A DNA stretch of 28,603 nucleotides, from IMG/VR virus record IMGVR_UViG_3300011334_000063, positions 1-28,603 of that record. One strand, given 5' to 3'. The notes beneath the pieces are model-generated. The model was given only the letters and a program-made list of their open reading frames with translations. It did not search any database and had not been told where the DNA came from. The stretch's first letter is position 1, and each line of letters opens with the position of its first letter. Source of the DNA: a virus (taxonomy: Duplodnaviria; Caudoviricetes). The translations under genes were made by a program, and so were the position numbers. Below are positions 3,196-28,603 of the stretch, piece by piece.

Positions 3196-3588
3196 ATGCC
3201 AGCAAAACTACCTTATAGTAAACTAGTAGAGAAACACATCCTAGAGTGCATCAAAGGTGGCATTAGCATTCGTCAAATGATAGCCTCTATGCAACACCTA
3301 CAAGATGCCCCTAAGTCTCTTTCCACCATGTATCAAACGTATGGTAATTTTATTGAAGCTGAAAGAGCCAAGATCAATGGTGCTGTTGGTAAGAAAGTTA
3401 TTGACCAAGCATTAGAAGGTGACTTCAAGTCCCAAGAATTGTTCCTTCGTTCCAAAGGTGGTTGGTCGGTTTCCAGCACCAACGTCGAAGTTGAGCAGGA
3501 CATTGATCCAGATGTCGATGAAAGTGCCGTTGATACCCTTATGGCCCTGCTAGGTAAAACCACAGAGGACAAAGATGAGGACGTGTAA
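3196..3588 (+). CDS. terS: Terminase small subunit
   Basis: Position before terL; N-terminal HTH-like region, FLRSKGGW motif, acidic tail; SD GGAG. Confidence 0.75.
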   Translation: MPAKLPYSKLVEKHILECIKGGISIRQMIASMQHLQDAPKSLSTMYQTYGNFIEAERAKINGAVGKKVIDQALEGDFKSQELFLRSKGGWSVSSTNVEVEQDIDPDVDESAVDTLMALLGKTTEDKDEDV

Positions 3589-4087
3589 GAACCATACATG
3601 CGGGGTTGACATCTCACACAAGAAGTCTCACGCACAGTACTGTTCCCGTTCCTGCAAGGATGTTGAATCTAGTCGTAGAAACTACGAACAGAAAGAGTCT
3701 AGGCGCAAAGAGTGGCGAGTGGAAAACCCGGAAAAGGTGCGTCTGTACAAAAAGAAGACTAAAGAGCGTTTTGGAGCAGCCTACAACGCAAAGCGCAGAG
3801 TTTCCAAGACAAGTGCTACTCACGACACTGCAACAACAAAATCTCTGTCCTCCTTAGCGTCACGCATAAACAAACTTACAAAAAGTGAGTTACAGCTTGA
3901 CCATATTGAGCCTGTCGTCCACAAAGATATTTGCGGATTAAATTCAGCGGCCAATTTGCAGCTTCTTGATGCTAAAATAAACAGAGTTAAAAGCAATCGC
4001 AGGGATTACCAAACACCCTTGGAAAAACTTCATGCCAGCACAAACTCGACAAATCACCGCAGATACCCTCAGACAACTTCCAGCTAA
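3575..4087 (+). CDS. Free-standing HNH endonuclease
   Basis: N-terminal C..C / YCSxxC zinc motif; LDHIEP...CGLN..ANLQLL...N..KSN HNH core; overlaps terS and terL. Confidence 0.85.
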   Translation: MRTCKNHTCGVDISHKKSHAQYCSRSCKDVESSRRNYEQKESRRKEWRVENPEKVRLYKKKTKERFGAAYNAKRRVSKTSATHDTATTKSLSSLASRINKLTKSELQLDHIEPVVHKDICGLNSAANLQLLDAKINRVKSNRRDYQTPLEKLHASTNSTNHRRYPQTTSS

Positions 4088-13362: not shown

Positions 13363-14274
13363 ATGCCCTTTTCGCAAGGCTCTCGTTCCAGCCTATCGTT
13401 TGTTACAGAAGTAACATTTGGTACTACCCCCGCTGGTAACTTTACTAACCTACCTTTCTCTACCCACTCGCTGAACTTGACCAAAGATCGTGTTGCTGGC
13501 AATGATATCCAAGCTGATCGTATGCCTCGTGTTGATCGTCATGGCAATCGTCAAGTAGCTGGTGACATTGTTGTTGACCTACGTGATGGTGTATATGATG
13601 CCTTCCTAGAATCAGCTATGCTCAATGCTTGGTCTACTAACGTCTTGAAAGTTGGTACTACGCCTAAGTTCTTCTCTATCGAAGATTACGCTGCTGATAT
13701 TGACCAAGCTCGTTTGTTTACTGGTATGTCGGTCTCGACTATGGGTGTCTCTCTGGCCCCTAACCAGATGGTTACTACCACGTTTGGTATGGTAGGTAAA
13801 GACATGACCATCAGTGCTACCCAGAAGACCCAGACAGCCGCTGCCAACAATGCTCCTTTCGATGCTTACTCAGGTGACATTGCCATTGGTAACGTAGGCT
13901 CAAGCTCTGCTGTAGCGATTGTAACTGGCCTTGACTTCACTTTGAACAACTCGTTTGCACCTACCTTTGTGATTGGCGACAGTTCTGCCCCATCGCTTGA
14001 GTATGGTCGTGCTGAGATTGAAGGTACTATCACTGCTTACTTTGAAGATACGGCTCTGATTAACCGCTTCTTGAATGAAACTGAAACAGAACTTGAAGTC
14101 TCTGTGAATGATCCAACTGGAACTAACGCTTACTCGTTCTTGTTCCCACGTATTAAGATTAACAGTGCAGATGTTCCTGTTGATGGCCCAACCAGCCGTA
14201 TCATCAACCTGTCCTTCGTGGCTTTGTATGATGCAACTGAAAACTCCAACTTGGTCATTACTCGTCCTGCATAG
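13363..14274 (+). CDS. Major tail tube protein
   Basis: E.TFG.TP N-terminus, G.ITAYFED, FPRIK; strong codon bias. Confidence 0.9.
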   Translation: MPFSQGSRSSLSFVTEVTFGTTPAGNFTNLPFSTHSLNLTKDRVAGNDIQADRMPRVDRHGNRQVAGDIVVDLRDGVYDAFLESAMLNAWSTNVLKVGTTPKFFSIEDYAADIDQARLFTGMSVSTMGVSLAPNQMVTTTFGMVGKDMTISATQKTQTAAANNAPFDAYSGDIAIGNVGSSSAVAIVTGLDFTLNNSFAPTFVIGDSSAPSLEYGRAEIEGTITAYFEDTALINRFLNETETELEVSVNDPTGTNAYSFLFPRIKINSADVPVDGPTSRIINLSFVALYDATENSNLVITRPA

Positions 14275-14297
14275 TTTACGTAACCCCTAGCTAGGGA

Positions 14298-14409
14298 GAG
14301 GAAGCGTAGGAGTCGGGTCTTACGCTTCCTCACAAATTACCTAATACAGTAAATAACCCGACAAAACAACTACAAACCCCGACAATTTACCTTAAAGGAT
14401 AACCCGACT
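14298..14409 (+). promoter_or_regulatory. Putative cis-regulatory RNA: 14-bp hairpin with GUCGGG loop plus three complementary CCCGAC boxes
   Basis: Stem 14298-14311/14318-14331; boxes at 14357, 14378 and 14403. Confidence 0.65.
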
Positions 14410-14808
14410 ATGGATTTGCTAGACCTGACCCCGAAATCAGAAGAACTTGTTGTTGCCCTTAAGCACCCCGCTACTGGGGACATTCTTAAGAATGAAGATG
14501 GCAGTGACATGAGCATTACAGTATTTGCCCCTTACTCGAAAGAGTATAAAAAAGTCCTGCATGAGATGACCAACAAACGTCTCAAGAAGTTGCAAGGTAA
14601 GGGGGCCAAAGAAATTACAGCAGAAGAACTTGATGAAATCTCGCTAGATAGTTTGGCTAAGACGACTAAAGAATGGAATATCACTTTTAATGGTGAGAAG
14701 CCTAAGTTGTCATTGGCTAAAGCTCGTGAGATTTATGAAAGGGTCTTCTGGATCAAGGCTCAAATCGAAGAAGCCTCGGAGGAAGCTCTGGGTTTTATGA
14801 AAGCCTAA
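14410..14808 (+). CDS. Tail assembly chaperone (lambda gpG-like)
   Basis: Between tail tube and tape measure; LKHPATG motif; slippery G GGT TTT near the end. Confidence 0.9.
   Translation: MDLLDLTPKSEELVVALKHPATGDILKNEDGSDMSITVFAPYSKEYKKVLHEMTNKRLKKLQGKGAKEITAEELDEISLDSLAKTTKEWNITFNGEKPKLSLAKAREIYERVFWIKAQIEEASEEALGFMKA
14790..14796 (+). other. Programmed -1 frameshift site G GGT TTT
   Basis: X XXY YYZ heptamer three codons before the stop; the -1 frame stays open to 15149. Confidence 0.85.
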
Positions 14809-15149
14809 CTTGTGACCTCTGTAATTGGGCTGAACATCAGTTTAAGCTCAATAGACGTGACAAGGATGGCATAACTGAGAGAGAGCATCTTGAGCAAGTA
14901 GAAAGGCAGATTGGACGTAGACCTGAAGCATTGGAACCCCCGACAGATTTCCCAATGTTACTAGGACACGTCTGGTCTGCCTATTGTCGTTTAAGTAACA
15001 GAAGAAACCAAGGTTTCAATGGGCCAGATCGACTTACCCCAACCGCAATTAAAGACTGGTTGGAAATAACAGGTGAGGTATTGAACCCTTGGGAAGTAGA
15101 TGTTATATTTCGACTGGATGATACATACATGAGGTGTATAAATGGTTGA
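14796..15149 (+). CDS. Frameshift extension of the tail chaperone (gpGT-like, about 246 aa in total)
   Basis: The -1 frame reads YESLTCDLCNWAEHQFKL...RLDDTYMRCING. Confidence 0.85.
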   Translation, partial: YESLTCDLCNWAEHQFKLNRRDKDGITEREHLEQVERQIGRRPEALEPPTDFPMLLGHVWSAYCRLSNRRNQGFNGPDRLTPTAIKDWLEITGEVLNPWEVDVIFRLDDTYMRCING

Positions 15150-15657
15150 CGAAAAGTGGTGTAATGATTGCAAAACGTCTCTCCCCATCTTAGACTTCTA
15201 CAAAGATAAAAGCGTGGGCGATGGGTTTGACTACTTCTGTAAGCTGTGTAGAAAAAAGCGGAAGTTGTCACGAAAGACCCACGAGAGTGGCTACCACAAA
15301 GCGTACAGGGACAGTCACCAGAAAAAGCGAGAACAATACTCCCGTCAGTTTAACGAAGAAAATAAAGACTACTTCACAAACTGGAGACAATTAAACAAAG
15401 GTAAGATGAGAGCCTACTCTAAGAAGTACCGCTCTATAAAATCTAAAGCAACGCCACCTTGGTTGACTGAGGCTCAGTATGAGGCAATAGAGTCTTTTTA
15501 CCTATATGCAAGGGATTGCGAAGTGGTCAGCGGCGAAAAATATCACGTAGATCATGTTGTTCCCCTACAAGGTAAAAACGTTTGTGGCCTCCATGTCCCT
15601 TGGAACTTGCAAGTGTTACCCGCTGACATAAATATTTCCAAGTCAAACAAATGGTGA
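15142..15657 (+). CDS. Free-standing HNH homing endonuclease
   Basis: CxxC...CxxC N-terminus; ATPPWL; YHVDHVVPLQG..VCGLHVPWNLQ...N..KSN. Confidence 0.92.
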   Translation: MVDEKWCNDCKTSLPILDFYKDKSVGDGFDYFCKLCRKKRKLSRKTHESGYHKAYRDSHQKKREQYSRQFNEENKDYFTNWRQLNKGKMRAYSKKYRSIKSKATPPWLTEAQYEAIESFYLYARDCEVVSGEKYHVDHVVPLQGKNVCGLHVPWNLQVLPADINISKSNKW

Positions 15658-15812
15658 GCAATAGAAGAAGTATGGGGTTTTCTGGGCCTAACCCAATTAC
15701 CTTTGAGCAGATAAAAGCGTGGAAAGAATTGACTGAAACACCGATAGATACTTGGGAGATACAAGCAATCATTAGGTTAGATGAAGTCTATATGGGGGTG
15801 GCTAATGGCTAA
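15651..15812 (+). pseudogene. Displaced paralogous 3' end of the gpGT gene, still an open 53-aa frame
   Basis: VSNRRSMGFSGPNPITFEQIKAWKELTETPIDTWEIQAIIRLDEVYMGVANG aligns ungapped (24/52 identical) with 14991-15149. Confidence 0.85.
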
Positions 15813-17874
15813 TGACTTAGTTGAAATTGGTATTAACGTAAAAAGCAATGCTGATGCTGCCTATAAAGGTCTTAATACCTTAAATGGAGCGGTTGTAAAT
15901 TCTATCAAATCTGCTGAAAGACTAGAGAAGAATTATGCACTCTTGGACAAAGCTGTTGCAAAGAAAAAGATAACCCTTGAGCAATATGCAAAAGGTGTGC
16001 AACAAACAGATGCTGCAATAGCAAGTCTACAACAACGCATGAATGATAGTTCTGTGGCAGTCCAAAACTACGGAAGGCACGTTAATCAGGCCAAAGGTTA
16101 CACAAATCAGCTAGGCTTGGTTACACAGCAATTTGGTTATCAAGTGGGTGACTTAGCAGTTCAAGTTCAATCTGGGACTAACTTTTTTGTTGCTTTCGGA
16201 CAACAGGCTACCCAGCTTGTCGGTACATTTGCAATGCTATCTCAGTCTACAAAAATGATTGGGGTTTTCACTGCACTTGGGATAGCAATTCCAGTGATTA
16301 CTGGTATCCTTGCCTATATGACTAGGACTAAAGAAGAAACAGTTAAAACTGTAGACGCATTTCAAAAACTACGTGATGCTACTAAAGAACTCAATACTGA
16401 GCGTATGAAACTAAATGATCCGAAGTTTGATGAAAACCTAGTTGGGACAAGAGAAGAACTAGACAGACTAGCAAAAGCCTATGAAGACGCTGCAAAAAAA
16501 GCAGACGAACTAGCCCTAAAACAAAGCCTTTCTTATGGTCGAGGTGGGGCTGGTATTGCTGTTGCATCCATGCAAGCAAAATTAGCACAAGAGGCTGCTG
16601 ATGCTGCTGTAGAAAAGGCAAAAGCTGAACTCCATGCTTATCAACAAGAAGTCGGACTTGCTAAAGCGCGGGAGATGAATAACGCCCGTATTGATGCTCA
16701 AAACGAACAAGGTCTTCGTGACCTAGAAGCAAAGAGAGCTTTGGGCATTTCTATTCTGTCTACTATTATAGAGGAATCAAGAAAAAGGGCGGAGATCGCT
16801 AAGAGCATTGGGGAAGCGCACCTTGATGCACTAGGTCTCTCTACTGTAAATATCGAAGGTGGAATTAACAGGGCAGCAGAAGCAGCTAGAGTTCTTGCTT
16901 CAAATTTGGGCATCTCTTTATCTGCTGCTACAAATATGGTCAATCTGGCTGCTAGTGACAGGTTAAAGCAACTTCAATTTGAGTTTTCCGCTGGCGGACA
17001 AGCCATGCAAAGATATGGCTCTCGTGGTGCTAATGTTGGTGCAGGTATGCCCATGATTGGCCCAGATGGTATCCCAATGTTGCCAAGCACAGGTAACGGC
17101 GGTGGTGGTGGCGGGGGTGTTGCTAGTCCAGATGCTCTTGAAGCACTTCTAAAGAGAGTAGAACTTGAGAAAGAACTGCTTGGTACATCAGAAGCGTATA
17201 AAGAGGTTATGCAAGCCATTAAAGGCTCTGATAGGGAATATTCTGAGGCATCTATTCAAAATGCTGTAGCTCGTCTAGAAGCTGTTAACAAAGAAAAAGA
17301 AGCTCTGCGACAAATGGAGTCTCTGCAACAAAGCGTGGCTGATACTATCGGTGATGGTTTTATGTCTATGGTAGATGGCACAAAGAGTGTCAAGGATGCC
17401 TTTAGAGATATGGCTCGTAACATTATCAGACAGTTGTATGATGTCCTTGTTGTACAGCGTCTTGTTGGTAATGTACAGAGTGGAACTGGTATTGCAGGTT
17501 TCCTTGGTAAACTATTTGCAGATGGTGGCGCTTTCAGTGCTGGTCGTCAAATCCAAGCTTATGCTAATGGTGGTGTTGTTGGTGGCCCTACTTACTTCCC
17601 TATGGCTGGCGGTAAAACTGGTCTAATGGGAGAAGCTGGCCCAGAAGCTATCATGCCACTCAAGCGTGGCAGAGGTGGTAAACTTGGTGTTTCTGTCGAG
17701 GGTGCTTCTGGTTCTGTTGTTGTCAATAATAATATCAATGTAAGTGGTGGCTCTGATCCTGCCGCTATTCGTGCTGAAGTGGCGAAACTTATGCCACAGA
17801 TCACAAGTGCTACTAAGAGTGCTGTTATTGATGCTCGTAGACGTGGTGGACAAATGAAAGCCGCCTTCTCATAA
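15805..17874 (+). CDS. Tail tape measure protein (689 aa)
   Basis: Start at ATG 15805 (SD GGGGGTGG); lambda-type GYQ..D..VQ N-domain and A.GGVV..PT...GLMGEAGPEAIMPL C-domain. Confidence 0.93.
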   Translation: MANDLVEIGINVKSNADAAYKGLNTLNGAVVNSIKSAERLEKNYALLDKAVAKKKITLEQYAKGVQQTDAAIASLQQRMNDSSVAVQNYGRHVNQAKGYTNQLGLVTQQFGYQVGDLAVQVQSGTNFFVAFGQQATQLVGTFAMLSQSTKMIGVFTALGIAIPVITGILAYMTRTKEETVKTVDAFQKLRDATKELNTERMKLNDPKFDENLVGTREELDRLAKAYEDAAKKADELALKQSLSYGRGGAGIAVASMQAKLAQEAADAAVEKAKAELHAYQQEVGLAKAREMNNARIDAQNEQGLRDLEAKRALGISILSTIIEESRKRAEIAKSIGEAHLDALGLSTVNIEGGINRAAEAARVLASNLGISLSAATNMVNLAASDRLKQLQFEFSAGGQAMQRYGSRGANVGAGMPMIGPDGIPMLPSTGNGGGGGGGVASPDALEALLKRVELEKELLGTSEAYKEVMQAIKGSDREYSEASIQNAVARLEAVNKEKEALRQMESLQQSVADTIGDGFMSMVDGTKSVKDAFRDMARNIIRQLYDVLVVQRLVGNVQSGTGIAGFLGKLFADGGAFSAGRQIQAYANGGVVGGPTYFPMAGGKTGLMGEAGPEAIMPLKRGRGGKLGVSVEGASGSVVVNNNINVSGGSDPAAIRAEVAKLMPQITSATKSAVIDARRRGGQMKAAFS

Positions 17875-27880: not shown

Positions 27881-28603
27881 CATTTATGTTCACTGATATG
27901 CGCTAGTTATCAGCGGTAGCGTGTTAAAACCCATTCCGCAAACTTGATTAACTCCTCTGGGGAAGCGTCAACCTTCATCATATTTGCTCGGTGAGAAACA
28001 ACCATTACGTTGCCTTTCACATAACCCTTATTGTTGTCAACACGATCAAGAGCTGGACTATTAGGGTTTCCGCCAGATCGACCTTTGTGGGCAACAAGTT
28101 CAATACCCAATACTGGGCAATGGGTTGGGATGTGGATGTCAGAGAGTTCTAAATCAAACTCGTGTCCACGTTCTTTAGCCCTACCTTTTGCTCTCGCAAG
28201 CATTCTTTTCTCAGGGGCCGCAGATTTAACACGCTCGGAATTACAACTTGGGCAAAGCGTGACTGTCTTGCTTGTGATAGTAAAGATGGTGTTGCAAGTG
28301 CTACTAGAGCATTCACGGGTAACATCTCCAACAAGATTTCCTTCACGATTACGCTTCATCATAACTCCATTCTCCTGCAAGTTTCCATGCAGATCAGACT
28401 ATATCATCACCCTAATGTCAATAGGGGCAAGGCACTTCCACCCGCTTGGGTGTATGGACATTATTGACTGTTCTAGTCTCTCGTCCTAGTCGTTGAACCT
28501 TCCACATCATCCCTGATGGGCTTGGCTGCTGATTACCATATGCTATGCACTTAGGCTTCCCAGCAATTCACCTTGTTTTACTTCTGCTATCTTCTTAACA
28601 GAA
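27881..28603 (-). ncRNA. Group I self-splicing intron in nrdJ (5' end outside the window)
   Basis: P GAATTGCTGGGAA (28557-28569), Q AATCAGCAGCC (28524-28534), R GTTCAACGACTA (28487-28498), S GATATAGTCT (28396-28405); P3 CAAGGTG/TGCCTTG; P9 GAAA hairpin; terminal G at 27881. Confidence 0.93.
27910..28362 (-). CDS. Intron-encoded HNH-type homing endonuclease
   Basis: C..C/CxxC, CPVLG, LDRVDNNKGYVKGNV.VVS.RAN..K; SD GGAG before ATG 28362. Confidence 0.9.
   Translation of the reverse strand: MMKRNREGNLVGDVTRECSSSTCNTIFTITSKTVTLCPSCNSERVKSAAPEKRMLARAKGRAKERGHEFDLELSDIHIPTHCPVLGIELVAHKGRSGGNPNSPALDRVDNNKGYVKGNVMVVSHRANMMKVDASPEELIKFAEWVLTRYR

Follow-up and report, generated by a model that had tools for sequence, protein, structure and literature searches.

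A substitute tail-chaperone gene end and an HNH-motif gene form a phage cassette that probably spreads by intron-less homing

In the window (the whole stretch of 28,603 nucleotides of tailed-phage DNA analysed here) the tail chaperone gene gpGT carries a substitute 3′ end followed by a gene for an HNH-motif protein, both placed before the old gpGT end, and this cassette probably spreads by intron-less homing. The sequence data establish its anatomy and junctions, which copy of the gpGT end is the old one, the joint travel of tail and HNH gene across hosts and the coexistence of both alleles; we infer nuclease activity, a target site, immunity of the occupied allele, drive and function of the chimeric gpGT protein.

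Anatomy of the cassette and its gene context

The window covers a morphogenesis region with genes for terminase, portal, capsid, tail tube, chaperone, tape measure, baseplate and lysin; the features around the cassette are listed in Table 1. The gpG protein has no family match of its own and is 82-97% identical in close relatives. The slippery position reads GG(G/A)TTTT in all 95 scored loci, 6 of them repeat contigs, and the −1 frame that follows remains open to 15149, before the tape measure gene, and matches PF23812. A gpG/gpGT chaperone pair with a predicted frameshift is thus recognizable by its slippery site and open −1 frame. The closest named relative of gpT is that of Roseobacter phage CRP-6 (48%). 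According to the accessible text of PMC4493119, the frameshifted chaperone product is essential in lambda and TP901-1. A 14-bp inverted repeat (93%) is found at 14298-14331, between the tail tube gene and gpG, and a promoter scan gave 2 sites versus 2.8 expected. At the other side of the locus, tape-measure N-termini are highly variable among phages with near-identical gpGT ends (window 15810 onward; L004-L013), and alternative continuations in the reads start exactly at 15810.

Table 1. Features of the chaperone locus and the cassette
Feature	Position	Strand	Remarks
gpG tail assembly chaperone, 132 aa	14410..14808	+	named by synteny, between tail tube (PF18906) and tape measure
Predicted −1 slippery site GGGTTTT into T frame	14790..14796	+	gpG ends just past the site
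Host part (head) of gpT frame	14793..14982	+	189/189 nt identical to empty relative L003
Mobile cassette	14983..15654	+	672 bp in place of 9 bp of the empty allele; window versus L003
Substitute gpGT 3′ end (T-frame codons 64-118)	14983..15149	+	open to its own stop
Predicted Shine-Dalgarno-like GAGGTG for HNH gene	15131..15136	+	within substitute tail; GAGGTG also in L020
Predicted HNH-motif endonuclease gene, 171 aa	15142..15657	+	PHROG 1035 and motif
53-codon ORF over remnant	15651..15812	+	ATG overlaps HNH stop; translation predicted
Old gpGT 3′ end (remnant), predicted right homology arm	15655..15812	+	157/158 nt identical to L003
Predicted Shine-Dalgarno-like GGGGGTG for tape measure	15794..15800	+	inside remnant
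Tape measure gene	15805..17874	+	PHROG tape-measure matches; start as in empty relatives

The HNH-motif protein consists of N-terminal CxxC pairs, a helical linker and a C-terminal segment with D137-H138, N155 and N164, four residues that are invariant in 88 aligned homologues. We take the DH...N...N/H motif to be the signature of HNH (His-Me finger) nucleases, its residues presumably having the usual roles. The protein matches PHROG 1035 ‘endonuclease VII’ (E 1.4e-21), and in its Atlas neighbour cluster PF01844 occurs in 77% of the members (score 0.94). Sequence searches of Pfam, NCBIfam and PDB gave no match confirming the HNH fold; the PDB search yielded only a weak match of Hpy99I to the N-terminal Cys region, and a Pfam ‘Cytomega_US3’ match was discarded as below the cut-off. 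In the AlphaFold model the nuclease domain, including the beta-beta-alpha region, is unreliable (pLDDT <50 for residues 134-171). The dN/dS of about 0.1 relative to L001 indicates a nuclease under purifying selection. Two short HNH pieces of low depth in RNA run X17 are not counted as a sign of expression. Elsewhere in the window there are two further nuclease-like genes, one before the large terminase gene (3575-4087, +) and one at 27910-28380 (−), which adjoins a ribonucleotide reductase ORF that matches only positions 400-699 of a 701-position profile and is possibly a split gene. No flank duplication was found at these two ORFs.

The two copies of the gpGT end (14991-15149 and 15654-15812) are each 159 nt long, align ungapped at an offset of 663 and are identical at 24/52 amino acids and 84/159 nucleotides in pairwise comparison. 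Their BLOSUM62 local score is 133 versus a maximum of 45 in 5000 shuffles, and both exceed the cut-off of Pfam PF23812 Phage_TAC_18 (50.7 and 40.3 bits). With 53% overall identity and a longest identical run of 7 nt, the duplication is visible at the protein level only and was not reported by an exact-seed repeat search. Each copy closes with N-G-stop; the upstream copy runs by 8 nt into the HNH gene (ATG at 15142), and the remnant by as much into the tape measure gene (ATG at 15805). Lengths, offset, identity and overlaps, as recomputed from the sequence, agree with the preliminary description of this DNA.

The borders of the cassette differ from those first proposed. The window is identical to the empty relative L003 up to base 14982, differs from 14983 to 15654 and rejoins it at 15655, so that foreign DNA begins at 14983 instead of the claimed 14991 and ends at 15654. 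The old end, described as intact downstream, is so from 15655 onward, but 9 bp of the empty allele are gone. The HNH stop codon (15655-15657) is built from bases of the old gpGT end. Upstream, 55 codons are replaced by the substitute tail. Thirteen of the 24 residues that are identical in the two tails have a different codon and 28 residues differ, which by alignment makes the substitute tail a diverged protein variant (24/52 aa) rather than a synonymous recoding; the suggested unit of a recoded tail plus HNH gene was correct as to its two parts, but ‘recoded’ is too weak a term. The substitute tail keeps 15 of the 25 columns conserved in at least 85% of 99 native alleles, has a dN/dS of about 0.21 relative to L020, and groups in the tail tree with other cassette tails, apart from host alleles. 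Its GAGGTG motif lies where the native tail has the tape-measure site.

Occupied and empty alleles in relatives and populations

A search with the window T frame gave 19 loci, of which 14 span the whole end, 3 end short and 2 are distant and were left unscored. Thirteen of the 14 full-length loci have no HNH gene at the gpGT site; 12 of these match the downstream copy at 47-51/52 residues and the upstream copy at 25/52, and the 13th at 32 and 26, respectively. When L109 and a further 74 loci obtained by profile scan are included, the downstream copy is the nearer one in 88 of 88 HNH-less loci; the 74 were the top-ranking ones among 410 ordered by similarity to an empty-type sequence and are hence biased toward the downstream type. 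In the tail tree the window remnant nests with local empty alleles. Comparison with these relatives confirms the downstream copy as the old gpGT end, as had been predicted, and among the HNH-less relatives none is nearer to the upstream copy and none has both copies. A profile search with the substitute tail recovered only L001 and L020 from viral contigs, and L020's contig and L109 from metagenome contigs; no HNH-free donor lineage of the tail was found in either set. P0209 was rejected as donor, since it is another HNH-linked allele.

One cassette lineage is present on three host backgrounds, with flanks that in each case correspond to a different empty relative. The HNH protein of L001 is 93% identical to that of the window, and its gpGT head matches L008 at 188/189 and L003 at 168/189 positions; the bases of its remnant are L003-type for about 12 nt past the junction and L008-type thereafter, with a 3-nt deletion. 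Crossovers between the window and L001 are no more than about 20 nt away from either junction. In L020 the HNH protein is 63% identical, the substitute tail also begins with YCRL, the remnant is 41 codons long, and the flanks are 504/505 and 182/183 identical to the HNH-less L109. L270 and L271 have 91-99% of tail and HNH in common and 66-83% of the flanks; about 7 codons of the old end are left in L271. In L270 (1795-1810) the HNH start ATG of L271 reads ATA, and an upstream ATG is still in frame. The window, L001, L020 and L271 have one HNH gene at the gpGT site each, and no tandem clusters were found. Remnants in relatives measure 52, 41 or 7 codons or are fused to the nuclease: the related HNH proteins P0010, P0014 and P0007 end in gpGT residues, which read as fused remnants.

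Trees were calculated from 55 columns each for the head and tail of 93 T proteins, 13 of 106 rows being left out (short head or tail, or the window's own protein). The five cassette-type alleles are scattered in the head tree, where they need 5 changes, versus one long-branch clade in the tail tree (SH-aLRT 93, quick search), which points to discordant phylogenies of the two gpGT halves. P0121 and P0122, for which there is no gene context, come from contigs as long as those of HNH clusters, a hint that they are linked to such clusters. Between the window and L001, dS is 0.34 for HNH, 0.37 for the heads and 0.03 for the tail. As the HNH value is close to that of the heads and the tails are near-identical, transfer was not one clean recent event; this contrast, together with a patch of variant bases within HNH in run X14, indicates that cassettes also recombine internally.

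Of 93 HNH-less loci, 90 have TTT at codon 64, the F of the conserved TGGTCTGCCTTT, and the window, L001 and L020 have TAT there; L270 and L271 keep TTT, so the F-to-Y change is not universal in cassettes. The HNH-less sister of L020, L109 (2501-2530), has cassette-type YCR codons (1 of 93 loci) and could be an immune allele that arose by co-conversion or crossover. The earlier suggestion that recombination between the copies may swap C-termini finds one hint in L109, but the copies have at most 7 consecutive identical bases in common.

Within the HNH family 76 of 78 loci were scored for flank duplication, and only L020, L031 and L095 have the substitute-end layout; most members are ordinary free-standing genes. 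In L031 (949-1615) and L095 (2596-3246) it is the large terminase gene that is duplicated, over its final ~44 codons, again as substitute end plus remnant. Over the first 20 residues the window terminase agrees with the downstream copies at 18/20 positions and with the upstream copies at 12-15/20, and the upstream copies of L031 and L095 have changes in common. Other arrangements were also encountered. In L193 and L198 (1072-1656) an HNH gene is fused behind the duplicated first ~18 portal codons and the full portal gene starts anew where the HNH gene ends, which mirrors the gpGT layout at a 5′ end, and in L010 (2077-2631) a related HNH gene between tail tube and gpG overlaps the gpG start, with no duplication found. 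A prokaryote genome search gave 71 distant HNH loci and 6 viral ones; no junction-adjacent duplication was seen among the top-scoring matches listed.

Eight of the 24 listed sequencing runs were examined. Six DNA runs, each of a different study, contain occupied and empty alleles together; the empty form is seen as a joint in X7, X9, X10 and X14 and, in X4 and X5, as loose ends that carry the empty letters. The joint from 14982 to 15655 with 9 other letters is present in X7, X9, X10, X14, X15 and X17, and one X14 contig spans both junctions by more than 31 letters. These data rule out that the cassette is an assembly artefact and establish that the joined form is DNA. Contig depth, which is a rough guide only, was lower for the occupied than for the empty form, or about the same, in each of the six DNA runs (9 versus 71 in X9; 14.7 versus 15.4 in X14), and gave no sign of a cassette sweep.

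Proposed homing pathway and alternative explanations

In a mixed infection the HNH protein would make a cut or nick in the empty allele close to the conserved W-S-A-F codons, a target site suggested by the clustering of junctions and the conserved TGGTCTGCCTTT. Repair from the occupied genome, in which the gpGT head would serve as the left and the remnant as the right homology arm, would copy the substitute tail and the nuclease gene into the recipient. The recipient's gpGT frame would stay full length, and its old end would become a new remnant that still provides the tape measure gene with its ribosome site and start. Split and altered at the junction, the donor would be immune. Plausibly, an HNH gene first entered where the chaperone and tape measure genes overlap, its entry duplicating a short stretch with the ribosome site, as in L271; later the upstream tail would have diverged, and entries into distant hosts would have taken longer old ends.

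Left junctions occur at the same conserved codons across HNH proteins that are 43-93% identical, crossovers lie close to both junctions, the nuclease is under purifying selection, and the layout recurs at terminase ends. These points make it unlikely that the HNH gene is an ordinary free-standing or inactive one and that the duplication, formed once by illegitimate recombination, has been shuffled without cutting at this site, even though recombination is free within phage populations, occupied alleles do not predominate, and free-standing T4 enzymes cut far from their own genes according to the accessible text of PMC2988022. Far less probable is that the two ends are alternative chaperone modules that benefit the phage and are swapped by recombination. 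Such variants could matter, as the T domain recruits the major tail protein (PMC4493119, text accessible in part), and the HNH-less L109 has the cassette-type codons; however, copies with 53% identity and a common run of 7 nt at most offer little for such exchange, no HNH-less locus with the full substitute tail was found, and remnants shrink to 4-12 codons in relatives. Splicing of the 663-672 nt segment as an intron is very improbable, since the joined form, although seen in one RNA-labelled run (X17), also occurs in DNA runs X7, X9, X10 and X14 and has 9 bases that are absent from the occupied allele and so could not come from its splicing. The insert is coding over its whole length, Rfam gave 0 matches for 14200-16200 up to an E of 1, and the upstream gpGT frame is already full length; the element is very probably splicing-free, as the preliminary description had it.

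Homing would be compatible with a further role of the remnant, namely that it is kept because it lets ribosomes that have reached the HNH stop go on to the start of the tape measure gene, which we consider possible but doubtful. The downstream copy is indeed open and has an in-frame ATG (15651) over the HNH stop, as noted before, with no Shine-Dalgarno-like site upstream of it. An in-frame start over this stop is found at all three right-junction types sequenced (ATG in the window and L001, TTG in L020, ATGA with a 6-codon ORF in L271), the sole indel in the L001 remnant is 3 nt, and the HNH frames of P0010, P0014 and P0007 read into the old end and stop at old-end residues. However, a remnant 157/158 identical to empty alleles is uninformative on selection and too young for its open frame to count as evidence, it holds the tape measure's own Shine-Dalgarno-like site, the ATG in L271 is a native Met codon, and the terminase remnant of L095 has no overlapping start. 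A purine-rich site before AATGG is common in relatives. In lambda only ~4% of ribosomes reach the T stop (PMC3296357, accessible part), and at such a rate the tape measure of empty alleles is unlikely to depend on coupling to gpGT. A relay ORF is possible and not needed.

Relation to known elements and implications

The WHO elements at yeast FBA1 (Osborne, Monnin and Wolfe 2026, 10.64898/2026.08.13.744650; Coughlan et al. 2020, PMC7282813; both accessible in part) likewise combine an alternative 3′ end of an essential gene with an endonuclease gene. They retain the old 3′ end downstream as homology arm, act without splicing and leave gene halves that are phylogenetically discordant; for WHO6 at FBA1 the same architecture was shown to work, including cleavage. 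Unlike the single HNH-motif gene of the phage, WHO elements encode LAGLIDADG-zinc finger proteins, reside in yeast nuclei and form tandem clusters, whereas the phage target is a frameshift-only domain whose last codons hold the start of the next gene. Fungal mitochondrial mORFs, the parallel drawn in the preliminary description, match in the gene hybrids reported in the accessible text of PMC3630166 for Glomus atp6, atp9, cox2 and nad3 and, as cited there, Allomyces atp6: an endonuclease ORF comes with a foreign C-terminus, and the native C-terminus lies downstream and clusters with relatives. The mORFs differ in their LAGLIDADG or GIY-YIG enzymes, their location in organelles and the similarity of the inserted atp6 end (91% protein identity versus 46% here). 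The phage cassette works like WHO elements and mORFs and belongs to neither.

Among phage systems, ‘intronless homing’ by the T4 seg and mob genes is similar in its lack of an intron and in break repair with co-conversion of a resistant allele, but these genes are intergenic and cut hundreds to thousands of bp away (accessible text of PMC2988022); the window insertion lies inside the T frame of the empty allele. In mycobacteriophage Omega lysin A has acquired a new 3′ end through the HNH insertion gp51, and 35 bp were lost (PMC3706429), and in Cluster O an HNH gene lies between tail assembly chaperone and tmp, with no splicing found (PMC4351075); unlike here, a homologous substitute end with a retained old end is not described in the accessible parts of these papers. 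A literature search confined to main texts, mostly of openly available papers, gave no phage paper with this combination, and the accessible parts of PMC10448857, PMC12724721, PMC2248197, PMC7487136 and PMC8393795 do not describe the layout for phages.

A broader reading, which we regard as speculative and rather improbable in its full extent, is that phages harbour a widespread, undescribed class of WHO-like splicing-free homing elements, in which the present HNH clade has specialised on gpGT ends, tail and nuclease evolve together, the tail persisting over long times as an immune allele, and selection has set each remnant length so that ribosomes arrive at the tape-measure start. If this reading is true, the element would repair both the protein and the translation of the operon. 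The cassette itself, in its probable role as a homing unit, adds to introns and inteins a third way of housing a selfish nuclease within an essential phage gene. Its logic is already known from eukaryotes, which limits the surprise. Natural pairs of occupied and empty alleles that differ by the cassette only make target site, immunity and drive directly testable. Such cassettes also account for the fast, discordant evolution of structural gene ends, as in tail chaperone and terminase, and these ends may mislead phylogenies and annotation.
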